This document shows, one piece after another, positions 3,284-60,373 of a stretch of DNA of 64,000 nucleotides (position 1 is its first letter; every line of letters begins with the position of its first letter). A program made the position numbers and the translations under genes. Origin of the DNA: Asaia bogorensis (GTDB taxonomy: Bacteria; Pseudomonadota; Alphaproteobacteria; CACIAM-22H2). Under the pieces are notes generated by a model. It did not search any database and was not told the DNA's origin. It saw nothing but the letters and a program-made list of their open reading frames with translations. Location: NCBI GenBank assembly GCA_945892765.1, contig CAMDDQ010000002.1, forward strand, positions 3,427 to 67,426, read 5' to 3'.

Positions 3284-3310
3284 CCCCGTGGATAACCTCC
3301 CCGTCACGCC

Positions 3311-3350
3311 AAAAAAGGAGCCCTCCGTATCAAATGATACGGAGGGCTCC
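3311..3350 (-). terminator. Rho-independent terminator on the minus strand: a 15-bp perfect stem with an AAAT loop, followed by T6.
   Basis: The plus strand reads aaaaaa GGAGCCCTCCGTATC aaat GATACGGAGGGCTCC. On the minus strand this is a hairpin followed by TTTTTT, immediately downstream of the stop of the 3379-4248 gene. Confidence 0.7.
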
Positions 3351-3378
3351 CTTGTCGGCAATCCAACCTATGACGGGG

Positions 3379-26953: not shown

Positions 26954-27970
26954 CTATGTCACCGCGTCCCGCGGAACGATTTCACCCCGGCGCAAAGCGC
27001 GCAGCAGACGCCGTCCGATAAGCGTCGGACGTTCCGCGGCGAGGAACTGCGTTGCCGGCCGCGCATACAGCAGATCGTCATCGGTCAACACGACTCCGGC
27101 GGCAAGGTCGTGTTTGGCGACGATGCCCTTTCGGATTGCATCTCGGTTCCCGGCTTCCGCCGCCTGCACGGTCTTCGCCGCATCGCCCAGCGCGGATTTC
27201 ACGCCCCGGATGGATTGGATGAGCGCCGCCAGCTCGGGCCCGGTGAACGACAGGCGGTGATCGCGGAAGCTGCTCGTCTCCCTCAGATCGGCATCGGTAA
27301 CGTGGACTTCGATGATTGCGGCGCCCAAAGCCACGGCCGCCAGCACGGCCTCGGACCCAATGACATGGTTGGAGTAGCCGACCGTTAGATCATAACGCGT
27401 CTTCAGGAAGGACACGGCGCGTACATTGGCCTGTTCGATCGGCGTGGGATAGCCGGACACGCAATGCAGCAGCACCAACCTTTCGTTCAATGCCTTCTGA
27501 CCAACCTCGTCGCGTACCCAACCGACCGCTCGGTCGATTTCGTCGACAACACCGCAGCCGGTCGAAAGGAGGACCGGCTTGCCGGTGCGGGCGGCGGCGC
27601 GGATCACCGTCTCAAAGGTCAAATCGCCACTGGCGATCTTGATGGCGGGCGCGAATTCGGCGATTCGCGGGACCCAATCTTCGGAAAGCGGCGTCGAAAG
27701 CAAGGGAATGCCGAGTGCCTTGGCTTCCGCCGCCAGGCGGTGGTGGGCGGCGATGTCGAGGGCGACGCGTGAAACTCGCGCAAAACGTTCGGCGTCCGAA
27801 GCGGACGTGTAACGCTCGGGCGTGTAGCTCTGAAGCTTGACCGCGTCGGCCCCGGCCTTCGCGGCGGCGGCGAGGATTCGGGAGGCGGCGTCGACATTGC
27901 CTTCGTGGTTGACGCCGATTTCGGCGACCACGGCGACCTCCCGATCAAGGTCACGGCCGAACAGGTTCAT
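26954..27970 (-). CDS. NeuB-family nonulosonic acid synthase, paralog 2.
   Basis: 'VAVVAEIGVNHEGNVDAASRILAAAAKAGADAVKLQ' with a C-terminal SAF domain. The true start ATG at 27970 overlaps the upstream stop (ATGA). The ORF-track N-terminal extension of 200 aa is spurious. Confidence 0.8.
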   Translation of the reverse strand: MNLFGRDLDREVAVVAEIGVNHEGNVDAASRILAAAAKAGADAVKLQSYTPERYTSASDAERFARVSRVALDIAAHHRLAAEAKALGIPLLSTPLSEDWVPRIAEFAPAIKIASGDLTFETVIRAAARTGKPVLLSTGCGVVDEIDRAVGWVRDEVGQKALNERLVLLHCVSGYPTPIEQANVRAVSFLKTRYDLTVGYSNHVIGSEAVLAAVALGAAIIEVHVTDADLRETSSFRDHRLSFTGPELAALIQSIRGVKSALGDAAKTVQAAEAGNRDAIRKGIVAKHDLAAGVVLTDDDLLYARPATQFLAAERPTLIGRRLLRALRRGEIVPRDAVT

Positions 27971-28917
27971 GCCGCGCCCTCCGGTTGGGCCAAGAACGGA
28001 TAGGGGCGGTTCTCGAACCCGACCATGTCGCGACGGATATGGAAGGGGTTGGTGATTCCAAGATCGTTGGACCCCGCCATGGCGCTCGGCGCATGATCGA
28101 AGCCGCGTTCGCGCAGATGGCCGATGACATGGTCGTCGTAATCGTCGGCCTGGCCCTCGGGGTAGGAAAACAGGCTGCAACGCCGTCCTAGCTCGCGTTC
28201 TAGAGCGGCGACCGATTCGTTGATCTGGCGGCGCATCTCGACCTCCGGCACCTTCGCCAGCGACACATGGTCCACGGTGTGGGCACCAAAATCGACAAGC
28301 GGCGACCGGGTCATCGTCCGGACCTCGTCCCAATCGAGAAAGCGATAGAGCGGGTGATTGGGATCGGCCTGCGCTTGGAGCTGCGATTCCACCGCGGCCA
28401 CGATTGCGTCCTTGTCGGAATTGGGCAGACCTTTGCAGGCGCGTTTGACCGAGGCCAGAGCCTGGAGGCGGGACTCGCTTCCCGTCAGGGAAAAACGCGT
28501 CTCCACGCCGCTCAAGACAAGAGTCAGCCGGTCGCGTTTGGTCTGCACAATCGCCGCTTCCAACCGGTCGGTCCATATCGCGCGGCCAGTGCCGATGAAC
28601 CCGGTCGCGAGATAGAAGGTCGCGGGAACGCCGAATTTCTCAAGAACAGGCAAGGCCTCGGCGAGATTGTTGTAGAAGCCATCATCGAAGGTGACGGCGA
28701 CCGCACCCGCCGGCAGGTCGCGCTCGCCGCGATGGGCGGCGGCGATGTCGCTCAAGCGGACGACCGGACGGTTTGCCGCCAAATGCTGCATCTCGGCGGC
28801 GAAACGCGACCGCGGCACATGTTTTCCCGAACTATTGCGATGGTTGAGTTCGAGATCATCGGCGTGAACGCCGTGATAGAGCAGAACGAAATATCGGCCC
28901 GGCGGGTCGGCGATCAT
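27967..28917 (-). CDS. Polysaccharide deacetylase family (CE4).
   Basis: 'VAVTFDDGFYNN' NodB motif 1. 'HTVDH' His motif. Start ATG at 28917, with ATGA overlap. Confidence 0.7.
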   Translation of the reverse strand: MIADPPGRYFVLLYHGVHADDLELNHRNSSGKHVPRSRFAAEMQHLAANRPVVRLSDIAAAHRGERDLPAGAVAVTFDDGFYNNLAEALPVLEKFGVPATFYLATGFIGTGRAIWTDRLEAAIVQTKRDRLTLVLSGVETRFSLTGSESRLQALASVKRACKGLPNSDKDAIVAAVESQLQAQADPNHPLYRFLDWDEVRTMTRSPLVDFGAHTVDHVSLAKVPEVEMRRQINESVAALERELGRRCSLFSYPEGQADDYDDHVIGHLRERGFDHAPSAMAGSNDLGITNPFHIRRDMVGFENRPYPFLAQPEGAA

Positions 28918-29738
28918 GGCGACTCCGCATAGGCGCGCAGCAGGCGGCCGGCGCGTTGCCTTAGTAGCCAGGGCATCGGACCGAAGTAACGGCCTTCGCC
29001 CGTCTGCGGCTCCGCTTTGGCGGTGCCGGCGACAAAACATGCGAGCAGATCAATGGTCATGCGCGCGCACAAAATGGCGGTATGGCAGCGCAGATTGACG
29101 ACATTCATGCCCTTGATGCGGCCGATGGGCTCGGCGGCGTAAATCGCGCCGGTATCGATTCCGGCGTCGATGCCGTGCAGAGTGACATTCATATCCTGGG
29201 GTCGCCCTTCAAGCACCGCCCATAGATTGGTGTCGAGGCCGCGATAGGCCGGCAATTTTCCGCCATGGGCGTTGACCGTGCCGAGCCTTGGCGCATCGAA
29301 GATCCGCGCCTTGACCACGCCGGTGCCATAGACCAGTTGAAGGTCCGGCGACGCCTCGGCAAGCGCCGCCGCCGCGTCGTCATCGTTGATGGATCGTACC
29401 TTTTTGACCGAGAGAGATTGGGGCAGGCTGCTGTCGCCATCGGGGAAGAAAAGTGAATTTTCGAACTCGGCTTGGGCGCGGGCGAAGGATAGGGGCTGGA
29501 AATAGGGGTTGAGCGCAAGGCCGCGCCATAGATTTGGGAAAGTCTGCCGCAAGTGTCGCTTCGCGTTGCGGCCCCACGGATAGGGCCTGGTCTCGAACAG
29601 CGCGAGAACAAGTTCGACACGTTCCGGCTTCTCCCGCCACAAGCGGCGAAGATAATAACGGTGGTGCGGTGTGTCGGTCGTAAGCACGGCAACCCGAATG
29701 ACGCCATCCCGCTTCGTGGAGCCGGCATCTTCGTTCAT
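28914..29738 (-). CDS. Formyltransferase (Fmt / ArnA-N-terminal-like sugar N-formyltransferase).
   Basis: 'NAHGGKLPAYRGLDTNLWAVLEG' resembles the formyl_trans_N H..LP.YRG motif. Start ATG at 29738 overlaps the upstream stop. Confidence 0.6.
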   Translation of the reverse strand: MNEDAGSTKRDGVIRVAVLTTDTPHHRYYLRRLWREKPERVELVLALFETRPYPWGRNAKRHLRQTFPNLWRGLALNPYFQPLSFARAQAEFENSLFFPDGDSSLPQSLSVKKVRSINDDDAAAALAEASPDLQLVYGTGVVKARIFDAPRLGTVNAHGGKLPAYRGLDTNLWAVLEGRPQDMNVTLHGIDAGIDTGAIYAAEPIGRIKGMNVVNLRCHTAILCARMTIDLLACFVAGTAKAEPQTGEGRYFGPMPWLLRQRAGRLLRAYAESP

Positions 29739-33403: not shown

Positions 33404-34420
33404 TCACTCGATTGCCTCGGGCGTGAGCGCCTCGAACGCCGCGATGCGCCGCCGAAGCCTGCGGCCGGAAAGATGAGGCGCATCAGCTGGGGACAGCGGT
33501 CCCTCCGGACGAATGATCTTGATGTCAGTTTCGGCGATCCTGTGGCCGGCATCGAGGTCGCGTGCAGCGTAAAGCCCGCGGCGCATGCGCCGGCGCATGG
33601 CGTCCTCGCCCGGCGCCGGAATCTTTTGTCCGTTGCCTAACATCCGTTCAATGCGGCGGATCGAGGTTACCAATCCCGCCATACCGACGGGATCAAGCGA
33701 CAGCGGGTGATCGCCGGGGCGCTGATTGCTGTCCAGCGTGAAGTGCTTCTCGATCACCCGTGCCCCCAACGCCACGGCCACGATGGGTGCCTCGGCGCCG
33801 ATCGTGTGGTCGGAGTAGCCCAGCGTGACATCGGGGAACCGGGCGCGCATGGTCTTAAGCGCGAGCAGATTGGCGTCCTCGTCGGGCAACGGATAAAGCG
33901 ACACGCAGTGCAGCAGCACAAGCCGTTCGGCCGGAACCAAAGCTGCGGCCCCGGCGACTTCGTCAAGCGTGGACATCCCCGTGGACAGCAGCACCGGCTT
34001 GCCGGTCGCGGCCCCGGCACGGATCAATTGGTGGAACGTGAGATCGCCTGAAGCGATCTTGATTGCCGGCATGCGTGGCGCCATTGCGTCAAGGATGTCG
34101 AGGGCGAATGGTGTCGTCAGGAAGTCGATTCCGAGGCCCGCGCAACGGTCGATAATTCGATCATAGGTCTCGGGGGGAAGCTCCAAAGATTTGAATCGTT
34201 CGAACTGGGATCTATAGGCGCTTCCGGCCATCGGCATCGGCGCGGCATTTGGGTGAATCAGAGACCCGGCGTCATAGGTCTGAAATTTGACGGCATCAGC
34301 GCCAGCGCCAGCCGCTTCCTCCACGAGTCGCAGCGCGACCGTCGAATCGCCATTGTGGTTGCCGCCGATCTCCGCGACGACATAGACGTGGCGGCCCAGG
34401 TCGGTGCGGCCGATGATCAT
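33404..34420 (-). CDS. NeuB-family nonulosonic acid synthase, paralog 3.
   Basis: 'VYVVAEIGGNHNGDSTVALRLVEEAAGAGADAVKFQ' with a C-terminal SAF domain. Start at the internal ATG (34420). Confidence 0.8.
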   Translation of the reverse strand: MIIGRTDLGRHVYVVAEIGGNHNGDSTVALRLVEEAAGAGADAVKFQTYDAGSLIHPNAAPMPMAGSAYRSQFERFKSLELPPETYDRIIDRCAGLGIDFLTTPFALDILDAMAPRMPAIKIASGDLTFHQLIRAGAATGKPVLLSTGMSTLDEVAGAAALVPAERLVLLHCVSLYPLPDEDANLLALKTMRARFPDVTLGYSDHTIGAEAPIVAVALGARVIEKHFTLDSNQRPGDHPLSLDPVGMAGLVTSIRRIERMLGNGQKIPAPGEDAMRRRMRRGLYAARDLDAGHRIAETDIKIIRPEGPLSPADAPHLSGRRLRRRIAAFEALTPEAIE

Positions 34421-34421
34421 C

Positions 34422-35834
34422 CTAGGTCGCGACCCCGTGAGGGGCGGAACCGGCGCCCTGCCATGAATCGGCGCCACGGGTCATGTGTTGCGCCGTCCAG
34501 TAGTCGAAGGGCGTGGCGATGCGCAGCGCATCATAGGGCGCCAACTCGATATGCCCGACGGCGCGGCCGAACAAATCGCTGCCCGAGATCAGATTTTCAG
34601 CCTTTAATGCGTACAGGCCGCCAGCCTCGCGGTAGATGACGTCGCGATCCTGGCGCACGACTCGTTTCTGGTAGCCGACCGGCGTGAGTCCGAATCGTCC
34701 GACTTTCCAGTGATAGGTGAGGTCTTCCACGACCGCGACGACCGAATCTGTATCGTAGAGCAGTAGGGTATCCAGCGCCTCTACGACATGGTCGCGGCGA
34801 ATGAAAGGCGATGTGGGATGGATGATCAGGACGAGATCCGGCTGATATCCATCGTCGGCCTGAAGGCGGTGCAACAGGTCGGTCAAGACCGCCTCGAACG
34901 CGATGGCCGGACTGTTCAGCGCCTTGCTACGCAGGAAGGGAGCCTCGGCGCCGGCCGCCCGCGCTGCATCCGCGACCTCGGCATCGTCGGTCGAGACAAC
35001 AATGCGCTCGATCATTTCGACGCCGCGGAGCTTATCGATGCAGCGGGCCAGCAGGTTGCCGTTCTCGAGGGATAGCAAGGGCAGCTTCGATCCATTGAAC
35101 CGGTCGGCCCTCGCCGGAAGGACGGCGAGGACCCGCCGCTGGAAGCGTTCGCGATGTTCTGCGACGAAGCGGTGTTTGACCGCCCGCCGCGTTTCCATCC
35201 GCCCTTCCCAGTTTCGAGACATGCTCTTGCCGTGCTCGCGGCGGAAGTAGAGCGGCAACGATACATTCCGAACTTGGAACTTTTCGATGAACTTGATCCA
35301 GAAGTCATAGTCTTCTTGGTAGCGAATGGACTCATTGTAGCCGCCGATCGCGTCGAAACAGGGGCGGCGATACATGGCGCCGGCGGCCGGCGCGGAGCGA
35401 TCGAGCAGCTCCACCTCTTCATTCACACGGTAGTGTCGTACGCGCTCGATGATGTCGCCATGCGAATCAACGGCGACGAGGTCGCAGAAGACAAGTCCAA
35501 TATCGGGGTGACGATCGAGATAGGTCGCCAGCACCAGAGCCAGGTTTTCGTCGTACCAGTCATCAGCGTCGAGTCGCACAATGTATTCGCCCGTCGATGC
35601 GGCGATCCCGCGATTGCAGGCGGCGGCCAGGCCGATCCCGGCGGTGCGGACGATCTTCAATCCGGGTCTTCCCTCATAACGAAGGAGAATTTGAGGCGTT
35701 TCATCGGTCGACCCATCGTCGACGACGACGACTTCGACCGCCGCATAATTCTGGCTGAGCGCGCTGTCCAGTGCGCGCGGCAAGTATTTCGCGTAGTTGT
35801 GCGCAGTGACGATGATGCTGACGGGAGTAGGCAC
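34422..35834 (-). CDS. Bifunctional fusion: an N-terminal GT2 glycosyltransferase and a C-terminal NeuA-like CMP-sugar cytidylyltransferase.
   Basis: N-terminal 'VSIIVTAHNYAKYL...VVVVDDGSTD...RLDADD' GT2. C-terminal 'LAVLPARADRFNGSKLPL' CTP_transf_3 signature. GTG start overlaps the upstream TAG by 1 nt. Confidence 0.7.
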   Translation of the reverse strand: MPTPVSIIVTAHNYAKYLPRALDSALSQNYAAVEVVVVDDGSTDETPQILLRYEGRPGLKIVRTAGIGLAAACNRGIAASTGEYIVRLDADDWYDENLALVLATYLDRHPDIGLVFCDLVAVDSHGDIIERVRHYRVNEEVELLDRSAPAAGAMYRRPCFDAIGGYNESIRYQEDYDFWIKFIEKFQVRNVSLPLYFRREHGKSMSRNWEGRMETRRAVKHRFVAEHRERFQRRVLAVLPARADRFNGSKLPLLSLENGNLLARCIDKLRGVEMIERIVVSTDDAEVADAARAAGAEAPFLRSKALNSPAIAFEAVLTDLLHRLQADDGYQPDLVLIIHPTSPFIRRDHVVEALDTLLLYDTDSVVAVVEDLTYHWKVGRFGLTPVGYQKRVVRQDRDVIYREAGGLYALKAENLISGSDLFGRAVGHIELAPYDALRIATPFDYWTAQHMTRGADSWQGAGSAPHGVAT

Positions 35835-36601
35835 TATTCTCTGTCTCCGCGTAGCCTGACGTTGATTGACGAGTCGATCTCCATCGCCGGTACTTGGCTG
35901 TTCAACGCGACGATTTCCGGATGGGCGTCAAGCCAGGCGATAATTTCCTTGAGCCGCGGGGGATTGCCTCCGAAGGCCTCATAGACCGCGCGGACGACGG
36001 CAAGGTCCTGCGGCGTGTCGATCGTCAACCGCAGTTCCGGCCGCCTTAGCGCGGGGTCGGCGACTGCGAATTTGCAAACATTGAATCGATCCGGCCGGCG
36101 AATCATCAAAGTCATGTACTCGCTGGCCTTGGGGTCTTCGGCGAGATCATGGCAGCGTTCGAGCGCCTTCAACGACATGACTTCGCATCGCGTGCCGCGC
36201 GGCGGATCCTCCGTGTAGGTATAATCGGCGCCGGCCTCTTTATGGGCCGCCAGCAACTGGTCCATGATTTCCGGATCGGTCAGCGGATTGTCACCCGTAA
36301 TCCGGACGATTGTGTGGGTGGCTCGACTCCAAGCCACCTCGATGAAGCGCGACATCACGTCGAGCTCGTCGCCACGGTAGACGCGCGCGCCGATCGTCCC
36401 AGCCAGTTCCTCAAGCGGATCGTCGTCCGGGTTCGTCGATGTACACCAGACGACATCCTCCGAAAGCCTCGCCTGCGAGACACGTTCGTGAAGTCGAAGA
36501 ATCAATGGTTTGCCCACGAGGTCGGCCAGGGCCTTCCTGGGAAGCCTTGAGGATTTTAGCCGTACGGCAACCAGGGCCAGCGTGCCGCTATGCGGGATCA
36601 T
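35834..36601 (-). CDS. CMP-sugar cytidylyltransferase (SpsF/PseF-like), second stand-alone copy.
   Basis: 'LALVAVRLKSSRLPRKAL' signature. Confidence 0.7.
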   Translation of the reverse strand: MIPHSGTLALVAVRLKSSRLPRKALADLVGKPLILRLHERVSQARLSEDVVWCTSTNPDDDPLEELAGTIGARVYRGDELDVMSRFIEVAWSRATHTIVRITGDNPLTDPEIMDQLLAAHKEAGADYTYTEDPPRGTRCEVMSLKALERCHDLAEDPKASEYMTLMIRRPDRFNVCKFAVADPALRRPELRLTIDTPQDLAVVRAVYEAFGGNPPRLKEIIAWLDAHPEIVALNSQVPAMEIDSSINVRLRGDRE

Positions 36602-37590
36602 GGGAGATCCTCCGCCAGGATCGGCTCGTCAGGCAGTTTGGCCGCCGCCAACAGCCGTCCCGCGAGCCGTTCAACGTCCGACTCGCTTAGCCCGGCCCGA
36701 TTGGTGCGCTTAAAGACCGCGTCTTTGGCGGTGAGGTGGTGGTCCCTGGGCAATGAACCCGCGGCGACAGCCTGCCGTTTCATCTCGTAGCGATACTTCG
36801 TCTCCGCGGGCGAGAGTGCGTCGCCGCCGTCGCCGAGGGATGTCCCGACGAGGCGCAGGAATCGCGTGAAGTCGGCGAACTCGGCGGGCTCGAGCGCCGA
36901 GAAATGGTCGCGACCCTTCCTCGACCGATCGTCCGTCACGTGTTTTTCAATGACCTCCGCTCCGGCCGCGAGCGCCATCGCCGGCAGGGTTCGGGCTTGT
37001 TCGCGGGCCGATGCGTCGGTGTGATCGGCAAATCCGACCGGCAACCCGAAACGCTGCTTCAAAGCCGGAAGTCGCGCGAGCTTCATGTCCTCTATCCGCG
37101 TGGGATAGCTCTGAAATCCGTGCATGAGCGTGACGCGCGCCTGGGTGAGGGGACTAATGACACCCAGCGCCGCGGCAATCTCTGCGTCCGTGGCGCCGCC
37201 GACGGCAAGGTGCAGGGGCTTGCCCGTGTGCGCCGCCGCCGCAAGGAAACGAAGGTTCGCGATATCCGAGGTAGGAAGCTTGTAGCCGCTGACGCTGCCG
37301 CTGCCTTCGGCCAGGTCCAAGCTAGGCTCATCGAAGGCCTCAACCCAAATTGCGACCGACGCACCGCGATATTCCGCAAGAATTTCTCGCCATGTTTCGG
37401 CGGCGATTTCGATCTGTCCAAAGGATTCGAATTTCGGATGGAAACGCGAAATCAGCGCGTCGCGGCGGAAGATCTGGAATTTTACCGCGTCAGCTCCGGT
37501 TCCCGCGGCCAGTTCAAACAATCGCCTTGCCAGCGCGGGGTCGCCTTCGTGAGCGGAGGCGATCTCGGCAACGATATAGGGAAGGTTCAC
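36598..37590 (-). CDS. NeuB-family synthase, paralog 4 (divergent).
   Basis: 'YIVAEIASAHEGDPALARRLFELAAGTGADAVKFQ' with a C-terminal SAF domain. 330 aa. Confidence 0.75.
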   Translation of the reverse strand: MNLPYIVAEIASAHEGDPALARRLFELAAGTGADAVKFQIFRRDALISRFHPKFESFGQIEIAAETWREILAEYRGASVAIWVEAFDEPSLDLAEGSGSVSGYKLPTSDIANLRFLAAAAHTGKPLHLAVGGATDAEIAAALGVISPLTQARVTLMHGFQSYPTRIEDMKLARLPALKQRFGLPVGFADHTDASAREQARTLPAMALAAGAEVIEKHVTDDRSRKGRDHFSALEPAEFADFTRFLRLVGTSLGDGGDALSPAETKYRYEMKRQAVAAGSLPRDHHLTAKDAVFKRTNRAGLSESDVERLAGRLLAAAKLPDEPILAEDLP

Positions 37591-37631: not shown

Positions 37632-38771
37632 CTATATCGCGGTCGCGTCGTGGCGCCGCTGTTCTTCGGCCTTATCGGCGTGATGTTCGTGGTGATCGAC
37701 ATCGGCGCGAATGAAGCGGCCCGGCGCGGACTCCGATTCCTTCGCCAGCCGTTCGCGTTCGGCCAACTCGGTTGGGCTCATCTTCCGCCATTCATAGGAC
37801 GTCATGACGAAGCAGCCCTTGCAGGGGTCGAATTCGTCCAGACGACCGCTGCGATTCCAGTCGCGCAGCGTCTCCATGCGTTCGCCCTTCCAGATGTCTT
37901 TGAGCGGCACCTTCGTCGCGTCGCCGATGGTATAGGTGCGCTCCCAATCCGAACAGCAAGGGAAGACCTTGCCGTCGCGGGCGACGATCATGCGCTGCCA
38001 GGGCTGGTTGCACCGCTTGCGTCCGACGGCGATCTGGTCGCCGCTGTAAAAGGCGTTGCCTTGGCCGCGGTCGCTGACATCCTTGACCGCGATGTCGTCG
38101 GCGATCTCCTTCCACATTTCAAGAAAACGATCGACCTCGGCCTGATTCTCCTTCATGCGCACCATTTGAATGCGGATGAACGGCTTGACGCGGCCCTTGG
38201 CCTCTCGAACTTCGTGGAATTTGCGGATGTTGGCAGTCAGGCGGTCGTAATCCGAGCCGACCCGAACTTTCTCGTAGGTCTCCTTGGTCGCCCCATCCAT
38301 GGAAAAAATGATGCGGTCGAGACCGGCATCGATCAGCTTCTCGATGCGCTTTTGCGTGTAGGGGATGCCGTTGGTGTTGATCTGGACCTCGAGGATTCCC
38401 TTCTTCTTGGCGTAAGCCACGAGGTCCTCGAGCCCGGTGTGCAAGGCCGGCTCGCCGCGCCAATTGAACTTGATCGATTTCGTGCCGCCGGCGGCCGCCT
38501 GATCGATGGTGGATTTGGCGAAAGACATGTCCATGCGACCGGTGATCGGAACCCCGGTCGTGCCATGAACGCACATGATGCAGCGCAGATTGCAGGCCTC
38601 CGTCACCTCGATGTCGAGATGCAGGGGGAACGGCGTCACATGATCGTATTTCGCGACGAATCCCCATTTGGCCCGATAGATGAAGAAATTGAGATCGAAG
38701 CCGCGCTTGGCCCATTCGAGCGCCGCGTTGATCTTGCGGGCGAAGCCGTTGATTTCTTCATACTTGGCCAT
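37632..38771 (-). CDS. Radical SAM enzyme with a C-terminal SPASM/twitch-like Cys cluster.
   Basis: 'EVTEACNLRCIMCVHG' CxxxCxxC. C-terminal 'CNQPW...FPCCSDW...CKGCF'. Start at the internal ATG (38771). Confidence 0.75.
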   Translation of the reverse strand: MAKYEEINGFARKINAALEWAKRGFDLNFFIYRAKWGFVAKYDHVTPFPLHLDIEVTEACNLRCIMCVHGTTGVPITGRMDMSFAKSTIDQAAAGGTKSIKFNWRGEPALHTGLEDLVAYAKKKGILEVQINTNGIPYTQKRIEKLIDAGLDRIIFSMDGATKETYEKVRVGSDYDRLTANIRKFHEVREAKGRVKPFIRIQMVRMKENQAEVDRFLEMWKEIADDIAVKDVSDRGQGNAFYSGDQIAVGRKRCNQPWQRMIVARDGKVFPCCSDWERTYTIGDATKVPLKDIWKGERMETLRDWNRSGRLDEFDPCKGCFVMTSYEWRKMSPTELAERERLAKESESAPGRFIRADVDHHEHHADKAEEQRRHDATAI

Positions 38772-39774
38772 GATGCGTCCCACTGTAGCCGACTTCGCCC
38801 GCTTGCCTGAAATAGTCGAAGGTGCGGCGCACGCCTTCTTCGAGTGCAATTCGCGGCATGAAATCAAGCAATCGAGCCGCTTTGGATATGTCGGCGAAGC
38901 TGCGGCGGACCTCGCCGGCACGCTCCGGATGGTGCTTTAAACCGATTGTCCGACCGGTGCCGTGGCGAACAACTTCGGTGATCAAAGCGGCGAGCTCGTT
39001 GACCGTGCTTTCGGTTTGGGTGGCGATTTGGATGACTTCGCCGCCGATTCCGGGGCGAGTCGCCGCGCGAAAAATTGCCTCGATCAGATCGTCGACAAAG
39101 ACGAAATCGCGGCTTTGGTCGCCGTCGCCGTAAACCTCGAGAGGTTTGCCGGCCAAGGCACGCTTCAGAAAGGCGGCGACGACGCTGTCCTTGTGCGCCG
39201 ATCCGGGTCCGTAGACATTGCCGAAGCGCAGAGCCACGGTTTCAATGGCGAATGTGTGGAAATAGGCGCTGCAATAACCCTCGCCCGATAGTTTGCTCGC
39301 GCCATAGGGGGATTTCGGCCGGGGCGGCAGATTCTCGTGCAGCGGTGGGGCATGATCGCCCAGCGGTGCGGCCGACGATGCGAAGACAAATCGCCCGACG
39401 CGGTTTTTGCGCGCTGCCTCCAGATAGTTGAGCGTGCCGACCACGTTCACGGCGCAGTCGAAGGCCGGATCGGCGATGGACGACATCACACCGGCGTTGG
39501 CAGCAAGATGGACAATGACATCTGCGCCATCGGCCGCGCGCAAGGCCGCCGCCGCGTCGCGTATGTCGGCGATCATGACTTGGCAACCGGCCCATTCAGG
39601 CCCGGCACCATTGCCGCCCGAGTCGACCGCGTTGGTGCCATCGGGCAATGCCGAGCGCTTACCGGTCGATAGATTGTCGACGACCCGCATGGAAGCGCCC
39701 TCGCCATGCAGCCGCGCGACCAGGGCCGACCCAATGAAACCGCAGCCGCCAGTAATCAGCCAATTCATGCCCAT
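38758..39774 (-). CDS. NAD-dependent epimerase/dehydratase (UDP-hexose 4-epimerase-like extended SDR).
   Basis: 'WLITGGCGFIGSAL' and 'YGASKLSGE'. Confidence 0.8.
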   Translation of the reverse strand: MGMNWLITGGCGFIGSALVARLHGEGASMRVVDNLSTGKRSALPDGTNAVDSGGNGAGPEWAGCQVMIADIRDAAAALRAADGADVIVHLAANAGVMSSIADPAFDCAVNVVGTLNYLEAARKNRVGRFVFASSAAPLGDHAPPLHENLPPRPKSPYGASKLSGEGYCSAYFHTFAIETVALRFGNVYGPGSAHKDSVVAAFLKRALAGKPLEVYGDGDQSRDFVFVDDLIEAIFRAATRPGIGGEVIQIATQTESTVNELAALITEVVRHGTGRTIGLKHHPERAGEVRRSFADISKAARLLDFMPRIALEEGVRRTFDYFRQAGEVGYSGTHHGQV

Positions 39775-40913
39775 TTCACTCGCGGTAGGATGTAGTCCTT
39801 GCGTATGGCGTTGCCGTGACGGCGCACGAAATCGATCATGCCCACAATCAGTTCATCCGAGAGCGGATGGGGCTTCAATCCCAAATCCAGCAACCCGGTG
39901 TTCTTGGGATTGTAGTAGTGCTCTTCGGCCTCGCGCCTAGGGTTGTCGACCGGCCTTATCGCTACCTTGATCCCCGCGGCTTTGCCTGCTCGCTGAACGC
40001 GGTTCGCCAGTTCGTTCACCGAGAAGGTTTCGGTGAATTGGTTCAGTACACGGAATTCGCCGACCTTCGCCGGCTGGCGCAGAGCAAGTGCGACGCATTG
40101 GAGCGTGTCGCGAATGTCGAGATAGCCACGGGTCTGACCACCCTTGCCATACACAGTCAGCGGCTCGCCCGCTACCGCCTGCACGACAAATCGGTTCAAG
40201 ACGGTGCCGAAGATGTCGTCGTAGTTGAACAGCGGCGCGAGACGTTCGTCGGCGGCCAGTTCCTCCGTCTCGATCCCGTAGACCGGCCCTTGGTTCAAAT
40301 CGGTTACGGCAATATTCCAAACGCGCACGGCCAGATAGAGCAAGTCGCTGTCCTGGACCTTGGTCAGGTGATAGATCGATCCCGGCGTTTTCGGATAGAG
40401 GAAGCGATGTTCGCGTCCGTTGTGGGTGACGTCCAGATACCCTTCCTCAATATCTATATTCGGCGTCCCGTATTCGCCCATCGTGCCAAGCTTGACGATG
40501 TGGCAGCCGGGTGCTTTTTCGCGAACCGCCCATACAACGTTGAGCGTCGCCAGAAGATTGTTTTGAACGGTCGCGGCGGCGTGAGGCTGGCTCATCATCG
40601 AAAAAGGCGCCGAGGGTTGCTCGGCATAGTGAACGACGGAATCGGGACCGAATTCCCCGAACAGGCGCCGTAGGAATGCGTAGTCGGTGACGTCGCCGAC
40701 ATGCACGGCGATGCCGCGCCCACCGGCCGCGCGCCAGATCGCGGCGCGCTCGGGCATTTCCGGAACCCCAACCAATGGCTGGCAATCGAGATCGCGGCAA
40801 TTGCGCCGGCGCAAGTAGTTGTCCGCCACTGCCACGTCATGGCCCTGCGCGGCGAGGTTCATGGCCGTCGCCCAGCCGAGATAGCCGTCGCCGCCGAGCA
40901 CGAGCACTCTCAT
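39765..40913 (-). CDS. UDP-sulfoquinovose synthase homolog (SQD1/SqdB/Agl3 family).
   Basis: Near-identity to the SQD1 signature: 'VLVLGGDGYLGWATA', 'HYAEQPSAPFSM', 'VKLGTMGEYGTPNIDIEEGY', 'YHLTKVQDS', 'TDLNQGPVYGI'. Confidence 0.8.
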   Translation of the reverse strand: MRVLVLGGDGYLGWATAMNLAAQGHDVAVADNYLRRRNCRDLDCQPLVGVPEMPERAAIWRAAGGRGIAVHVGDVTDYAFLRRLFGEFGPDSVVHYAEQPSAPFSMMSQPHAAATVQNNLLATLNVVWAVREKAPGCHIVKLGTMGEYGTPNIDIEEGYLDVTHNGREHRFLYPKTPGSIYHLTKVQDSDLLYLAVRVWNIAVTDLNQGPVYGIETEELAADERLAPLFNYDDIFGTVLNRFVVQAVAGEPLTVYGKGGQTRGYLDIRDTLQCVALALRQPAKVGEFRVLNQFTETFSVNELANRVQRAGKAAGIKVAIRPVDNPRREAEEHYYNPKNTGLLDLGLKPHPLSDELIVGMIDFVRRHGNAIRKDYILPRVKWA

Positions 40914-41953
40914 GCGGCGGTCTCGGGTCTCAGAAGGCCGCTATCCCTTAAATAGGCGCGCAGCGAGTCGCGGTCCATGGGTGGGTGGTTGGCCGATGTA
41001 TAGGGCTGCTCCACCTGTTCGCGGAGAGTTTCGGGATAGCTGAAGTTCACATCGCGATAGAGATCGCGCAGGGCCGGGAGCACGGCAAAATGACGGCCAA
41101 GCTCGACTGACCGCCGGGTCTCCTCGCTGGTCATCAACTCCTCATAGAGCTTTTCTCCGGGGCGTGAGCCGATTTCCTTGATAAGGATCGCCTTCGGGTC
41201 AAGACCGAAAACCGGCGCCAATTCCTCGATCATCACACGCGCGAGGTCGGAGATGACGATCGTCGCCATCTTCGGGATGAAGACCTCGCCCCCGCGGGCC
41301 AGCGCCCCGGCCCCCAACACTAGATCGACGGCCTCGTCCAACGTCATGATGAACCGGGTCATCGCGCGATCGGTCAACGTGACGGCTCCGCCGCGCCGAA
41401 TTTGTTCGCGGAACAGCGGCACGACTGAACCGCGCGAACCCAGGACATTGCCGAAGCGGGTCGACGTGAATAGCGTTCCGTCGGGTGAAACGGCGGCAGC
41501 CGACATCAATCGCTCGCCCATCAGTTTCGATGCGCCCATCACATTGGTGGGGTTCACGGCCTTGTCGGAAGAGGTGTAGACGACCCTTGCCACCTTCGCC
41601 GCGCGGGCCGCGGCCACTACGTTTTGCACGCCCAGAATATTGGTTTGTACGGCTTCGAGCGGGCTGCGTTCGCACAGCGGCACATGTTTCAATGCCGCGG
41701 CGTGGAGGACGATGTCTACTCCCCGGCAGGCGTCGGCTACCTTGTCGCCGTCACGCACGTCGCCAAGGAGGGGAACAACCCGGTCCGCCCTGTGAGTCTC
41801 GGCCAGAAAGAACAGCTCGCTTTCATTGTTGTCGAGGGCGCGCAGTTCTCCCACGCCGAGGCCGAGCAGCCGAGTGACAAGCGCTCGCCCGACCGTGCCA
41901 GCCGCGCCGGTAACAAGCACGACGCGGCCTGAGAAAAGCATGCTAGGAGTCAC
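40910..41953 (-). CDS. PseB/CapD-like UDP-HexNAc 4,6-dehydratase, second copy (polysacc_synt_2).
   Basis: 'VVLVTGAAGTVGRALV' and 'MGASKLMGE'. Paralog of the 13449-14495 gene. Confidence 0.8.
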   Translation of the reverse strand: MTPSMLFSGRVVLVTGAAGTVGRALVTRLLGLGVGELRALDNNESELFFLAETHRADRVVPLLGDVRDGDKVADACRGVDIVLHAAALKHVPLCERSPLEAVQTNILGVQNVVAAARAAKVARVVYTSSDKAVNPTNVMGASKLMGERLMSAAAVSPDGTLFTSTRFGNVLGSRGSVVPLFREQIRRGGAVTLTDRAMTRFIMTLDEAVDLVLGAGALARGGEVFIPKMATIVISDLARVMIEELAPVFGLDPKAILIKEIGSRPGEKLYEELMTSEETRRSVELGRHFAVLPALRDLYRDVNFSYPETLREQVEQPYTSANHPPMDRDSLRAYLRDSGLLRPETAA

Positions 41954-42085: not shown

Positions 42086-43624
42086 TCAGGTGGCTTGTTG
42101 GAGAACGGCATTCACGTCGCTTTCGCCAAGGCTGTCGATTAGGCCCCCAAACGCGTTCTTTACGGCGGCGTCCAAGAGTGGCTCGGTCTGACCCTTGGTC
42201 TTGAGAGCAAAATTGTGCATATCGAAGGAACAGGCGATAGCCGCAGCCAGGAAACGGCTTCCATCCTTCCATGCCTTTTCGGCATCGACACCGTAGAGCG
42301 CGCGCTGAATGAACCCTTTGATTTGCGCCTCATCAATAACCGTCATGACGTGAGGGGCCATCGCATACATATTGTGTCGGCCGAACGTAATGACTGGCCG
42401 ACCGAGTGCCGCGGCTTCAAATCCCGCGGTCCCGGTAATGGTCACCGTAAATGCGGCCCGTCGCGCGCAATCAATGCCGCTTTCGCCCACATGGAGAAAG
42501 ACGACATTCTTCAAATCACCGATCTGATCGTAGAAATCGGTTGGCCGACGTCCGAGGGTGTAGAGATTTTCCTTGATCGCGAGAACGACACCCGCCGGTA
42601 GATCGCGGGCGATGGAGAGAATCGCGGCATGTTGGTTGAAGTATTCCGGAGACATGAGTTGCAAACTGGTTTCCGGCTCCTTGTGCAATGGGAAATATGC
42701 AAAGCGTCGGTCGGCAAGATCGGCAAGCCGGATGGTGCGTGAACCTGTCATGCGACGATAGGCGGCGTGTTCCCGAAGCGGGAAAGAAACGAACTCGCCG
42801 AAATCGAAACTCCGGGCTTTCTGATAGCCGCGTAGTTTCCAGTAGCCGTAGCTCAACGCGGCTACCGCGGCGCGGCGCAAACTTGTCGCGAGCGAGTGGC
42901 CGGTAAACCAGGTTTTCTTGGCGACAGCCATGCTGTAAGGCTGCTCTATTGTCGATTCCGGCCATGATGTCATGGCATGATAGGCGCGCTCGACCGCTGG
43001 GTTGAAGTAGTACTCGGTCGGCGTCCAATACCAGTAGTTTTTGTAGCGGCTCGTATCGAGTCGACGATAGAGAATGCCATGGGCGCGCGCCATCACGGCA
43101 GCGTCCTTGTCGCCTTGAAGCAGGATGGTCAGACCCTTGCCCTCGATTTCGCGGCGCCAGAAATCGAGCAACTCGCTATGCGCGTGCAGCATCTGGATAT
43201 AGCTGACGTCCCGATAGTGCTTCGATCGCGGGTAGTGAAAACTGCCGGGGCTGAAACCGCGTCCGAAATGCCGGTGGATGCAAGCAATCAGGCTGAATGT
43301 CGTGTCGCTCAGCTTCTCGAACGCCTGGGCGCGGGCGATGACCTCGGTTTCGTTCAGATCCGTGGCGCGCATGGCTTCCGGAATAACGTTGTTGTTGGAT
43401 ACGGAATCCCAGCGGCCGTGGGCGTTCATTTCTCGGAAGGCGCGGAGTTCCTCCGGACTGCGAACGTAAAGGTGGATCTTGGAGCCGTACCGCTCCTTGA
43501 GGCGGTCCGCCAGCTTGAGCGCGAGATCGCGCCAAACCGCGCGCACCTCAATCCCAACGCTGGCGAATCGACGTGACGCCGTCGCCTCATCGACATCTGG
43601 CGAGAATCCCGTGGCCGAACTCAT
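42086..43624 (-). CDS. Capsule-polysaccharide-biosynthesis (KpsS/KpsC-like, Capsule_synth) GT-B protein. Putative CMP-ulosonic-acid transferase.
   Basis: 'FAYFPLHKEPETS' and C-terminal 'TVTITGTAGFEAAALGRPVITFG' resemble KpsS/KpsC family motifs. The assignment is from memory of the family profile, not a computed search. Confidence 0.5.
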   Translation of the reverse strand: MSSATGFSPDVDEATASRRFASVGIEVRAVWRDLALKLADRLKERYGSKIHLYVRSPEELRAFREMNAHGRWDSVSNNNVIPEAMRATDLNETEVIARAQAFEKLSDTTFSLIACIHRHFGRGFSPGSFHYPRSKHYRDVSYIQMLHAHSELLDFWRREIEGKGLTILLQGDKDAAVMARAHGILYRRLDTSRYKNYWYWTPTEYYFNPAVERAYHAMTSWPESTIEQPYSMAVAKKTWFTGHSLATSLRRAAVAALSYGYWKLRGYQKARSFDFGEFVSFPLREHAAYRRMTGSRTIRLADLADRRFAYFPLHKEPETSLQLMSPEYFNQHAAILSIARDLPAGVVLAIKENLYTLGRRPTDFYDQIGDLKNVVFLHVGESGIDCARRAAFTVTITGTAGFEAAALGRPVITFGRHNMYAMAPHVMTVIDEAQIKGFIQRALYGVDAEKAWKDGSRFLAAAIACSFDMHNFALKTKGQTEPLLDAAVKNAFGGLIDSLGESDVNAVLQQAT

Positions 43625-44916
43625 TCGGCGCCCAACAGCGACATCAGCTTGTCAAGGCGCGGCGGATGGGCCGCCAACAGGCGCTCGCGCTCGACGAAAA
43701 GGCTCCCACCCTCCCAAGGCGCGTCGCTTAATGCAGATTCCAGCCGTCTTTCGAAATCTGGCGCCGCTGGGTTGACGAATATCGTGCCATATCCCTGACC
43801 GAGCGACGTCTCGCCCTGCCGGTCGTAGTGCTCTTCCCGGTAGTCCGCGCAATCGATGAAACGTCCTTCGGGGCTCGTGAATGCGACATTGGTCGGTGCG
43901 TTCACGATCGCCCGCCTGGACAGGGCGATCAGCACCTCTGGATGGGCGAGGCTGACAACGATGTGGGGATCGTGAAGCCAGCCAAGAGTATCGGAGAGGT
44001 AGGCGGCATTTTCGGCGAGAGGATGCGGTCGCACGAGAATCGTCGATTTCCGGCGGAGTTGCCGAAGGGCCATTAGAATCTGGCGGAAAGTCCTTTCTGC
44101 GGAATCGGGCGTGCGTAGATTGGCCGAGCTTGCCGTCTTCGGCGCAAAGAAGCAGTAGATCTCCCCAATTGGGTGCCCCGTCGCCCGCAACCGCTCCCGC
44201 TCGGCCGCCGCTTCGGCGATCACCAAGCGACGCCACGCTTCCAATTGGTTCGGGAGGCCCATGCACAAATTCGGTAGCGGCTGAACTGTGCCCCATCGAT
44301 TCAAAGCGTTCAGATAAAGGGTCTGCCGGTCATGGTAGTGGATCAGCGCATCGGCATCCCGCCCGAACAGCCGTCGCACCATGCTGGGTCCCAAATCCGA
44401 CACCATCAGGCGTGGCTGTACATGAGGATGAATGCCGGCATCGACTCCTCGCCCGCCCGCCAGGATGATGCCGCGGCCACGGCGCAGCCGCGCCAAAAGG
44501 AACCAGACCGGGTATGGGCCCGAGCTGAATTGTCGCCCGGCGAATAGGATCGGCCGCTTCCATCGCAACACCCAAACGCAGATGCGCCCGAATCCCGATA
44601 TTCTTCGCCACCATCGGACCAGGGTATTGGGCGCAGTCTTGGCATCGAGACAATGAAGCGTGCCGCATCGTTCGAGCCCGCGCATCAGCGTCGAATTGCG
44701 CCGGATGAAATCGAAATTCTTGGCGGAGAAGGTGACAAAACGGATTTGCCAGTCCGGCCGGGCTTCCTTCAACGCCAGCGCGGTTGGTAGATAGGTGTCG
44801 AAGTCGATGACTCGGGGCGAAAGCATGAAGACAACAAGACGCCGCCGGGATGCGCGCGCCGGCGCGAACGCAGCAGCGCCGTCCGCCATCGGGGTGTCCG
44901 CGTTCTCCGCCAGCAC
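43621..44916 (-). CDS. Hypothetical TagF-like GT-B protein (putative CDP/CMP-sugar transferase).
   Basis: 'ILVRPHPL' and downstream 'IVNAPTNVAFTSPEGRFI', similar to the HP and C-terminal motifs of glycerophosphotransferase-like enzymes. The match is weak. Confidence 0.4.
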   Translation of the reverse strand: MLAENADTPMADGAAAFAPARASRRRLVVFMLSPRVIDFDTYLPTALALKEARPDWQIRFVTFSAKNFDFIRRNSTLMRGLERCGTLHCLDAKTAPNTLVRWWRRISGFGRICVWVLRWKRPILFAGRQFSSGPYPVWFLLARLRRGRGIILAGGRGVDAGIHPHVQPRLMVSDLGPSMVRRLFGRDADALIHYHDRQTLYLNALNRWGTVQPLPNLCMGLPNQLEAWRRLVIAEAAAERERLRATGHPIGEIYCFFAPKTASSANLRTPDSAERTFRQILMALRQLRRKSTILVRPHPLAENAAYLSDTLGWLHDPHIVVSLAHPEVLIALSRRAIVNAPTNVAFTSPEGRFIDCADYREEHYDRQGETSLGQGYGTIFVNPAAPDFERRLESALSDAPWEGGSLFVERERLLAAHPPRLDKLMSLLGAE

Positions 44917-45755: not shown

Positions 45756-46259
45756 CTAGGCGCAGGCGGCCACCGCGTCGAGCGGAAGCCTCACGCGCAC
45801 CGGGCGGCCAAGGAGTTGCAGAAGGACGACAACACGCTGAGAATCGGACCCGTCGTCAAACAACCCGATCTGATCGCTCAATGCCCCGGTGACCACGCGT
45901 ATCCGATCGCCCTTCGCGAAAATTGTCCCCCGGCCAAGGACCACGAAGCCGCAATCATCCTCGCGCGCCCGGATCGCCTCGATCACCTCCGGCGGCACGG
46001 GAATTGGTCCGTCACCGCCCGATACCAGCCGGTGAACGCCGACGGTGGAGTCGATGGAACGCCACCGCTGCCGCTCCATGTCGATGCCAACGAACAGATA
46101 GCCCGGAAACAGGGGGGCGGCGACAATTTCCGCGCGACCCGCATGCCGGCGCTGTTTCTTGTGACGGGGCAGGTAGACGGCGAATTCCTGGCGGCGCAAA
46201 TGCATTTCGGCCTGGGCTTCGGCGCGCGGCTGCGTATGGGCGACGTACCAGCGCTGCAT
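45756..46259 (-). CDS. NusG-family transcription antiterminator paralog (RfaH/UpxY-like).
   Basis: 'RWYVAHTQPRAEAQAEMHL' NGN domain. C-terminal KOW-like 'FAKGDRIRVVTGALSDQIGLF'. It lies directly upstream of, and on the same strand as, the glycan operon. Confidence 0.7.
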   Translation of the reverse strand: MQRWYVAHTQPRAEAQAEMHLRRQEFAVYLPRHKKQRRHAGRAEIVAAPLFPGYLFVGIDMERQRWRSIDSTVGVHRLVSGGDGPIPVPPEVIEAIRAREDDCGFVVLGRGTIFAKGDRIRVVTGALSDQIGLFDDGSDSQRVVVLLQLLGRPVRVRLPLDAVAACA

Positions 46260-59536: not shown

Positions 59537-60373
59537 ATGACGAGCGGACGGGCTTTTCTCAAGATGCATGGGCTCGGCAACGATTTTGTCGTCGTTGACG
59601 CTCGCGGCGAGCCATTTGTTGCGGATGAACGCGTGGCGCGACACATCGCCGATCGCCATATCGGAATTGGCTGCGATCAGCTTATCGTCATCGAAAAACC
59701 TCGAAATGGGCAGGCCGACGCGTTCATGCGGATTCGCAACGCCGATGGCGGCGAGGTTGCCGCATGCGGCAACGCCACGCGCTGCGTTGCCCAGCTCTTG
59801 ATGGCCGAATCGGGTCGAGACCATGCCTACATCGAGACCGTGGCCGGACGGCTCGAGGCCGCGCGCGCCGATCGTGGACGGATCGCGGTGGATATGGGTC
59901 CGGCGCGAACCGACTGGCGCGACATTCCGCTGGCGCGCGCCATGGACACACAAAGGCTGCCAATTTCGCTCGGTCCCCTGAAAGACCCGGTCGCGGTGAG
60001 CATGGGGAACCCACATATGGTTTTCTTCGTGGACGACGCAGACGCGGTGGACCTCGCGACGCTGGGGCCGGTGTTGGAGACCAACGCGCTGTTTCCCGAA
60101 CGGGCCAATGTCGGCGTGGCCACCGTTCTAGCCCCCGACCGGGTTCGTCTGCGCGTGTGGGAACGAGGCGCCGGCCTCACGCGGGCCTGCGGCAGCGGCG
60201 CCTGCGCCGCGATTGTCGCCGCCCATCGGCGCGGTCTTTCGGAACGCCGCGCCGTGGTCGCCGTGGATGGCGGTGAACTGTCGATCGAGTGGTTGCCCAA
60301 CGGACACGTCACGATGATCGGACCGGCGGCCATCGCCTTCACCGGAATCATGGACGGGACGTTGCTGTCATGA
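59537..60373 (+). CDS. dapF: Diaminopimelate epimerase.
   Basis: 'FLKMHGLGNDFVVVD...IIEKPRNGQADAFMRIRNADGGEVAACGNATRC...ACGSGACAA'. Confidence 0.9.
   Translation: MTSGRAFLKMHGLGNDFVVVDARGEPFVADERVARHIADRHIGIGCDQLIVIEKPRNGQADAFMRIRNADGGEVAACGNATRCVAQLLMAESGRDHAYIETVAGRLEAARADRGRIAVDMGPARTDWRDIPLARAMDTQRLPISLGPLKDPVAVSMGNPHMVFFVDDADAVDLATLGPVLETNALFPERANVGVATVLAPDRVRLRVWERGAGLTRACGSGACAAIVAAHRRGLSERRAVVAVDGGELSIEWLPNGHVTMIGPAAIAFTGIMDGTLLS

Follow-up and report, generated by a model that had tools for sequence, protein, structure and literature searches.

What would a radical S-adenosylmethionine (SAM) enzyme be doing among genes for nonulosonic acids? To our knowledge, the established pathways to these sugars (NeuCBA, Pse, Leg and Sps) include no radical enzyme and use only polar, nicotinamide (NAD)- or pyridoxal phosphate (PLP)-type chemistry. 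The question is raised by a gene at positions 37632-38771 of a 64,000-nucleotide stretch of Asaia bogorensis DNA (GenBank assembly GCA_945892765.1, contig CAMDDQ010000002.1, positions 3,427 to 67,426 of the forward strand), the whole of which we call the window. As argued below from sequence comparison, its product is very probably a radical SAM enzyme of the BtrN-like twitch type that acts on a sugar and not on a peptide, within a nonulosonic-acid pathway that departs from the canonical ones. The fuller explanation, in which the reaction is a redox-neutral epimerisation, seems to us evenly poised between right and wrong.

Domain architecture and closest relatives

The gene and its two cysteine-rich elements are located as follows.

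37632-38771, minus strand: radical SAM gene, 379 amino acids plus stop, an open reading frame (ORF) scoring above the Pfam cut-offs for PF04055 and PF13186
38571-38594, minus strand: CX3CX2C motif (CNLRCIMC; C60, C64 and C67), read directly, predicted to ligate the SAM-cleaving [4Fe-4S] cluster
37812-38012, minus strand: predicted twitch auxiliary-cluster domain, residues 254-320 (C254-x12-G267-x4-C272, C273, C317-x2-C320)

A first-pass annotation, made without database searches, had already proposed this ORF, with a CxxxCxxC core and C-terminal CCSDW and CKGCF motifs, and it was right on each point: the ORF lies on the minus strand and all of the motifs can be read in the 379-residue protein as quoted. 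The Pfam scores place the protein in the radical SAM superfamily (Radical_SAM PF04055, 61.5 bits against a cut-off of 29.5, E 1.5e-16; SPASM PF13186, 54.4 bits against 21.5, E 1.6e-14). The likely true start is the ATG at 38771, and the stop codon ends at 37632. An alternative GTG start at 38921 can probably be discounted, because it would reach about 160 nucleotides into the upstream short-chain dehydrogenase/reductase (SDR) gene, because 18 homologs share an M-x-x-Y-x-E start at the same position as the ATG, and because the same 379-residue gene was called on independent metagenome contigs.

The same annotation described the C-terminal cysteine cluster as typical of SPASM/twitch enzymes, of which the twitch half stands and the full SPASM half does not. 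The domain has only five conserved cysteines, C254, C272, C273, C317 and C320 (PCCSDW supplies C272 and C273, and CKGCF supplies C317 and C320), and the CX5CX3C part of the seven-cysteine SPASM motif (CX9-15GX4C...CX2CX5CX3C...C) is absent; it therefore reads as a one-cluster twitch domain of the BtrN type, not a two-cluster SPASM domain. Over 71 residues it aligns without a gap to BtrN, with C254, C272, C317 and C320 falling on the BtrN auxiliary-cluster ligands C169, C187, C232 and C235 at identical spacing, and the C-terminal 90 residues on their own match only BtrN in the PDB. Together with the fold comparison below, these four aligned ligands are what would be expected of the twitch subclass, with its four cysteines and single auxiliary [4Fe-4S] cluster. 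The fifth cysteine, C273, occupies the position of BtrN Phe188 and is invariant in 18 of 18 aligned homologs, as is the CX3CX2C motif, which is also kept across a 269-member alignment. The complete nine-position pattern (C60, C64, C67, C254, G267, C272, C273, C317 and C320) was found in 229 of 262 family members, including those less than 38% identical. The 18 aligned homologs also share many invariant arginines and lysines, a feature that suggests an anionic substrate, as opposed to the cationic one of BtrN.

BtrN, the 2-deoxy-scyllo-inosamine dehydrogenase of the butirosin pathway (PDB 4m7t/4m7s), is the best PDB match to the full sequence (E 1.7e-15), with both the core and the auxiliary domain covered. 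It is followed by BlsE, an unnamed radical SAM protein (8wm2), DesII, GDGT-MAS, MoaA, PqqE and SkfB. For an AlphaFold2 model built from an 18-sequence alignment (predicted local distance difference test score, pLDDT, 79; predicted template modelling score, pTM, 0.79), Foldseek also ranked BtrN first (E 1.9e-13; TM-score 0.74, normalised to BtrN), with BlsE next and SuiB, DesII, MoaA and the anaerobic sulfatase-maturating enzyme (anSME) also among the fold matches. Like our protein, BtrN combines a radical SAM core with a one-cluster twitch domain, and it acts on a carbohydrate-like small molecule rather than on a peptide. The two proteins differ in that they are only about 19-25% identical, in that ours adds a C-terminal tail and an N-terminal extension of about 50 residues (modelled as two helices), in the replacement of Phe188 by C273, and in genomic context, which for BtrN is a set of aminoglycoside genes and here is one for nonulosonic acids. 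DesII and BlsE, also significant PDB matches, carry out radical chemistry on sugars attached to a nucleotide or nucleobase; unlike our protein they have no link to NeuB, their reactions are deamination/oxidation and decarboxylation, and their similarity to it lies mainly in the radical SAM core (for DesII, the sequence match covers nothing else). With sugar-acting BtrN, BlsE and DesII as the nearest solved structures, the early suggestion that the enzyme belongs to a carbohydrate-acting rather than a peptide-maturing class gains support.

None of the curated families that we tested includes this protein. No NCBIfam family scored above its cut-off, the best being partial matches of the radical SAM core to unrelated maturases. 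Against NF033640 (N_Twi_rSAM) the protein scored 66.6 bits in three partial stretches, where the threshold is 170. In the 510-position model TIGR04321 ("spiro-SPASM", cut-off 250 bits) it matched positions 227-502 with 88 bits, and positions 78-227 were matched, with 44.8 bits, by a separate cytidylyltransferase encoded nearby (CTP255, described below). Both halves of that model are therefore represented, as in a fusion protein discussed below, but here as separate genes with a NeuB gene between them, and the radical SAM protein is best seen as a relative rather than a member of TIGR04321. Pfam found neither a B12-binding domain (PF02310) nor a RiPP recognition element (RRE; RiPP, ribosomally synthesised and post-translationally modified peptide) in the protein. 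C-methylation, one of the chemistries first put forward, was set aside on the same scan, which detected neither a B12 nor a methylase domain. Of the subgroups among which the enzyme was to be sorted, then, the SPASM profile PF13186 matches, the B12-binding domain is lacking, the DesII resemblance is confined to the core, and no NCBIfam cut-off is reached; by sequence the protein lies outside NF033640, TIGR04321, the anSME and RiPP maturases, and the B12-dependent radical SAM enzymes.

Homologs are numerous. A word-indexed search returned more than 548, of which the top 120 are 50-76% identical, and an exhaustive search gave 1125 clusters at 50% identity with E <= 1e-30. All are unnamed "radical SAM/SPASM" proteins, nearly all from metagenome-assembled genomes (MAGs) or metagenomes.

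A conserved cassette with NeuB and cytidylyltransferase genes

The first-pass annotation placed the gene in a sugar-nucleotide module, between a fourth NeuB paralog and an SDR epimerase. Both flanking genes were found where it had put them, in the following gene order (direction of transcription), with the radical SAM gene lying between the third and fourth entries.

40910-41953, minus strand: PseB/FnlA-like UDP-GlcNAc 4,6-dehydratase, 347 amino acids (Pfam; TIGR03589 257 bits, below cut-off)
39765-40913, minus strand: ortholog of UDP-sulfoquinovose synthase (SQD1/SqdB), 382 amino acids (PDB 1qrr, E 2e-135)
38758-39774, minus strand: GalE/WbgU/WbpP-like SDR of the UDP-hexose 4-epimerase type, 338 amino acids (Pfam)
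36598-37590, minus strand: NeuB4, NeuB-family synthase, 330 amino acids (Pfam NeuB, E 6.5e-47), 41 nucleotides downstream of the radical SAM gene
35834-36601, minus strand: CTP255, SpsF/FlmC-type cytidylyltransferase, 255 amino acids (Pfam CTP_transf_3)
34422-35834, minus strand: GT2 glycosyltransferase fused to a PseF/NeuA-like cytidylyltransferase domain (GT2-CTP), 470 amino acids (domain profiles)
33404-34477, minus strand: NeuB3, second NeuB-family synthase, with SAF domain, 357 amino acids (Pfam; TIGR03569 293 bits)

The association with NeuB is not a local accident. We collected 169 loci and mapped the proteins of the window cluster onto them by tblastn; 36 loci encode a radical SAM protein at least 43% identical to ours. 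A NeuB4-like gene is present in 30 of these 36, and four of the six others have less than 1 kb of downstream sequence, leaving 30 of 32 evaluable loci (about 25 non-redundant). The NeuB4-like gene directly follows the radical SAM gene in 24 loci, and after it usually come CTP255, the GT2-CTP fusion and the second NeuB, which is the last gene of the cassette. Among the matches listed, carriers include soil and marine Alphaproteobacteria, SAR11 Pelagibacteraceae, Omnitrophota, Thermodesulfovibrionales, Desulfomonile, Cloacimonadota, Nitrospirae, Magnetococcales and an archaeon. Placement of the enzyme in a NeuB module is thus confirmed well beyond the window, with NeuB and a cytidine monophosphate (CMP)-sugar synthetase co-located with it across unrelated genomes of many phyla.

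The SQD1, GalE-like and PseB-like genes often accompany the cassette (about 10 loci) without being a fixed part of it. A GalE-like SDR lies directly upstream of the radical SAM gene in L087, L090, L091, L092, L095, L102 and L104, and a PseB-like dehydratase goes with the cassette in L087, L091 and L075. SQD1 is absent from most of the long cassette loci (L003, L006, L007, L010, L011 and L088), and in L088, L007 and L010 no dehydratase was seen within 10 kb. Genes for SDR reductases, AsnB-like amidotransferases and carbamoyltransferases often lie nearby. The association with nonulosonic acids is a property of the ortholog clade only, because below about 43% identity the NeuB linkage disappears: 66 distant homologs have heterogeneous neighbours, among them other radical SAM proteins (including B12-dependent ones), methyltransferases and GT1/GT4 glycosyltransferases.

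NeuB4 itself looks like an active phosphoenolpyruvate-condensing synthase, because it keeps the metal-binding and catalytic residues and the R314 equivalent. Relative to NmNeuB, the equivalents of E25, K53, Q55, K129, H215, E234, H236, D247 and R314 are retained, and E134D, N184Q and S213A are substituted. CTP255 shares 98% identity with a Rhodospirillaceae MAG protein that carries the annotation FlmC.

Several fusions bear on how these proteins may work together. NeuB4-type and CTP255-type proteins are joined in two loci, L006 and L088 (Omnitrophota and alphaproteobacterial; 600 and 590 residues), and in P0285, from the wider family, a CTP255-type domain is fused to a radical SAM/SPASM protein. 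That domain is 28% identical to CTP255 over its full length (E 1e-22) and has no similarity to the PseF-like domain. In L088 (alphaproteobacterial MAG GCA_002634385.1, 10001-19580) the cassette stands beside fliD and motAB and is followed by a 1187-residue protein with methyltransferase, MptE/Maf-like and TPR domains, which is the layout of a flagellin-glycosylation island; the window version is in an O-antigen-type cluster. In the CMP-legionaminic acid pathway of Bacillus, the cytidylyltransferase step is putatively assigned to SpsF-type proteins (PMC7439481). Taken together, the fusions, the split match to TIGR04321, the L088 layout and the SpsF-type precedent indicate that the radical SAM protein, NeuB4 and CTP255 would act on one metabolite stream ending in a CMP-activated sugar-acid donor.

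In several respects the cassette resembles the canonical CMP-nonulosonic acid pathways (NeuCBA, PseBCHGIF, LegBCHGIF and the B. subtilis Sps system): it encodes NeuB synthases, SpsF/FlmC- and PseF/NeuA-type synthetases and, in some loci, PseB-like dehydratases, and it is found in O-antigen, capsule or flagellin-glycosylation loci. Unlike them, it has a radical SAM enzyme, paired NeuBs, two to three cytidylyltransferase domains and a GT2 domain, and the cassette loci show no DegT, no hydrolase or epimerase of the NeuC/LegG/PseG type and no PseH-type step. Neither a DegT aminotransferase nor a NeuC-type epimerase (Epimerase_2) was found in the window cluster or the annotated cassette loci. Four NeuBs and at least four cytidylyltransferase domains without DegT or NeuC is an unusual inventory for a nonulosonic-acid locus.

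Some further observations concern relatives of these genes. The SAR11 Pelagibacteraceae contigs L003-L005 carry two twitch radical SAM paralogs per glycan cluster (2508-3584 and 8001-9089), the second of which is about 30% identical and adjoins a formyltransferase-like gene and another cytidylyltransferase; P0047 has the appearance of either a radical SAM-formyltransferase fusion or an assembly chimera. In P0297 and P0312 a D-2-hydroxyacid dehydrogenase or FkbM methyltransferase is joined to a radical SAM/SPASM protein, which hints at further small-molecule or sugar-tailoring roles in the twitch family. We also considered and dropped a lead from Leptospira, where the best PDB matches of the neighbouring proteins (6ncs, 6oew and 6p61) looked like one structural-genomics set. 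6ncs is a SAF-less NeuB-family protein from Leptospira, and its O-antigen locus in the rfb region of L. borgpetersenii JB197 (L171, CP000350) contains no radical SAM gene; the neighbours there include a CTP_transf_3 protein, an aldo-keto reductase, an SDR and a DegT aminotransferase, making it a different non-canonical NeuB context.

Candidate chemistries

In enzymes of this family, the [4Fe-4S] cluster cleaves SAM to a 5'-deoxyadenosyl radical, which abstracts a hydrogen from the substrate, and the auxiliary cluster lies close to that substrate. Applied here, the cluster held by C60, C64 and C67 would cleave SAM reductively, and the resulting radical would attack a sugar intermediate, taking a hydrogen from one of its carbinol or acetamido-bearing carbons. 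The substrate radical would then adjoin the auxiliary [4Fe-4S] cluster held by C254, C272, C317 and C320, and C273, a non-ligand, would give a hydrogen atom to the opposite face, yielding the epimer as in HygY and NeoN. Such an epimerisation could supply the configuration required by the NeuB-type synthase in a pathway lacking a NeuC/LegG-type 2-epimerase, or alternatively could tailor the CMP-activated acid; in either case, the genes immediately downstream, for the NeuB-type synthase and the CMP-sugar synthetase of SpsF/FlmC type, would make up the branch that the enzyme serves.

The precedent is a set of carbohydrate twitch enzymes in which one cysteine decides between epimerase and dehydrogenase. 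NeoN (neomycin) donates a hydrogen atom from Cys249 during epimerisation, and in HygY (hygromycin B) mutation of the cysteine is reported to uncover dehydrogenase activity (PMC10991966 and its reference list). C273 may correspond to the catalytic non-ligand cysteines of these enzymes. HygY and NeoN act on aminoglycoside pseudo-oligosaccharides. We favour epimerisation because the invariant C273 stands beside a cluster ligand at a position that is Phe in BtrN and because no NeuC/LegG-type epimerase was found in the cassette loci; for this specific chemistry the preference is a tentative one. By analogy with DesII and BlsE, and from the fusions, we lean towards a nucleotide-linked substrate. The place of the enzyme in the pathway may be ahead of NeuB4, with a hexose or nucleotide-hexose as its substrate, or behind CTP255, with the CMP-acid; gene order and conservation are compatible with either.

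Several points weigh against this picture. The closest scaffold relative, BtrN, is a dehydrogenase, and C273 may instead have a structural role or act as an alternative ligand of the cluster. Because the C2-H of a free 2-acetamido sugar is acidic, inversion at that carbon is within reach of ordinary epimerases; only an unactivated centre or a nucleotide-linked substrate would call for a radical enzyme. The NeuC or DegT genes could lie beyond the 10-kb flanks. Two evaluable orthologs, L009 and L015, are in polysaccharide clusters with no detectable NeuB nearby (L013 and L016 are in such clusters as well, and two of these four loci have less than 1 kb of downstream sequence). In SAR11-type loci the radical SAM protein is 65-68% conserved and NeuB4 only 31-34%, a gap that fits a constant radical SAM substrate and a varying synthase substrate and is compatible with either order of steps. 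Finally, the close matches listed are MAGs and metagenome contigs, and among them we found no cultured carrier with a known glycan.

Second in our ranking, and unlikely although to be taken seriously, is a BtrN-type dehydrogenation, in which the radical electron would be lost through the auxiliary cluster to give a keto-sugar or keto-CMP-nonulosonic acid that is later reduced, amidated or carbamoylated. BtrN is the closest relative by both sequence and fold, with all four auxiliary ligands aligned, and DesII too has dehydrogenase activity. The SDR reductases, AsnB-like amidotransferases and carbamoyltransferases that are common as neighbours would serve the later steps, and fusions between cytidylyltransferase and radical SAM domains fit tailoring at the CMP-sugar level. 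What such an enzyme would not explain is the invariant C273, which has no counterpart in BtrN and which, if it behaves like the cysteine of HygY and NeoN (PMC10991966), would turn oxidation into epimerisation. Moreover, NAD-dependent SDRs encoded in the cluster could oxidise ordinary carbinols.

Third, and improbable in our estimate, is radical elimination or decarboxylation, by an AprD4/DesII-type dehydratase or a BlsE-type decarboxylase, producing a deoxy or chain-shortened sugar acid in place of the usual 4,6-dehydratase/aminotransferase logic. The positions of BlsE and DesII just behind BtrN among the PDB matches, the three loci without a dehydratase within 10 kb, and the invariant arginines and lysines, if they do bind an anionic substrate, would all suit such a reaction. 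The DesII match is limited to the radical SAM core, however, the twitch domain is specifically BtrN-like, and many loci already have PseB-like dehydratases for the making of 6-deoxy sugars.

More doubtful still is the proposal that the enzyme tailors some other sugar of the same polysaccharide, for example the sulfoquinovose-type hexose expected from SQD1 and the 4-epimerase, and that it lies near NeuB only because the operon is shared. The SQD1 ortholog and the GalE-like SDR are directly upstream in the window and about 10 other loci, and L009 and L015 show the enzyme in glycan clusters without NeuB; yet most long cassette loci lack SQD1, whereas NeuB4 and CTP255 are almost constant and the fusions link them to this radical SAM type.

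That the enzyme is a peptide or protein maturase (anSME-like or a RiPP SPASM protein) working on a small precursor or another cluster protein is very improbable indeed: many peptide-maturase families do occur among the weak partial NCBIfam matches, and SuiB and anSME among the fold matches, but these NCBIfam scores all lie far below their cut-offs and mostly reflect the radical SAM core, the five cysteines would hold one auxiliary cluster as opposed to two in anSME and SuiB, the protein has no RRE, and the Pfam scan of the window cluster genes found no sulfatase. Nor can a conserved small precursor ORF fit, because the gene overlaps its upstream neighbour by 14 nucleotides and is separated from the downstream one by 41, with equally tight spacing in the orthologous loci; the absence of a precursor peptide, reported at first reading, was thus upheld, and an attempt to refute the sugar-acting role by way of a maturase clade failed. 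Redox-neutral epimerisation remains the chemistry that we place first.

The surrounding polysaccharide cluster and wider significance

The radical SAM gene is part of a surface-polysaccharide cluster of about 45 kb on the minus strand (881-46259). The cluster encodes a WbpL-like initiating transferase, a Wzy_C protein, an ABC transporter, many glycosyltransferases, three AsnB-like amidotransferases, a HisF/GATase pair, a carbamoyltransferase and several methyltransferases, as well as at least four cytidylyltransferase domains and four NeuB paralogs (11540-12610, 26954 to about 27900, 33404-34477 and 36598-37590). The second of these NeuBs probably has an internal start, because in the 540-residue ORF called there (26954-28576, minus strand) the NeuB domain begins only at residue 236 and the N-terminal part overlaps, in a different frame, a polysaccharide-deacetylase ORF (27967-29040, minus strand). 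A NusG/RfaH-like paralog (45756-46259, minus strand) heads the operon, which suggests dedicated anti-termination of the long polysaccharide transcript.

Over 380 ungapped residues the SQD1 ortholog shares 53% identity with Arabidopsis SQD1, and it keeps the catalytic T...YHxxK motif; with the GalE/WbgU-like 4-epimerase, it predicts a sulfonated 6-deoxyhexose in the glycan made by the window cluster. This pair of genes recurs beside the radical SAM cassette in about 10 other loci. Two further genes (42086-43624 and 43621-44916, both minus strand) have no confident family assignment, one showing a weak Capsule_synth (KpsC/KpsS-like) match (E 0.003); a homolog of the other sits between the radical SAM gene and NeuB4 in L091 and L106, and both are candidate sugar-acid transferases. 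Elsewhere in the window, a second CX3CX2C protein (60289-61608, plus strand; …GCDHRCTFCIIPYGRG…) is by motif alone a MiaB/RimO-type methylthiotransferase-like protein and appears unrelated to the gene discussed here. An Rfam search of the window found nothing.

What might the cassette as a whole produce? With a confidence somewhat short of even, we propose that the twitch radical SAM enzyme, two NeuBs, two to three cytidylyltransferase domains and GT2 form a self-contained route to one or two undescribed nonulosonic or higher sugar acids, without an aminotransferase or NeuC, in which the radical step would set a stereocentre or oxidation state in a way used by no known sialic, legionaminic or pseudaminic acid pathway. 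The route would have spread horizontally, from SAR11 and soil Alphaproteobacteria to Nitrospirota, Omnitrophota and archaea, and in the lineage of the window would be combined with a sulfonated hexose made by the SQD1 ortholog. A literature search covering few subscription journals yielded no paper that connects radical SAM enzymes with nonulosonic acids or names "spiro-SPASM", and nothing relevant on radical SAM enzymes with flagellin glycosylation or on combinations of NeuB, SpsF and Fe-S oxidoreductases. The enzyme scaffold is a known one; what appears new is its pathway context, which is widely distributed.

In pathogens and in abundant environmental microbes, nonulosonic acids are found on lipopolysaccharide, capsules, flagella and S-layers, where they govern immune recognition, phage adsorption and motility, and environmental surveys show nonulosonic-acid masses without an assigned structure. 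If our explanation is correct, the radical SAM step would open a new enzymatic way into these sugars, would assign a role to a protein family of more than 1000 clusters at 50% identity, and would help to explain such masses. SAR11 bacteria are among the most abundant in the sea, and the presence of the cassette in them makes it relevant to the diversity of cell surfaces in the ocean. The possible role of Cys273 as a switch between epimerase and dehydrogenase is a sharp, directly testable hypothesis, and the enzyme as a whole is a well-founded, experimentally tractable lead rather than a solved function.

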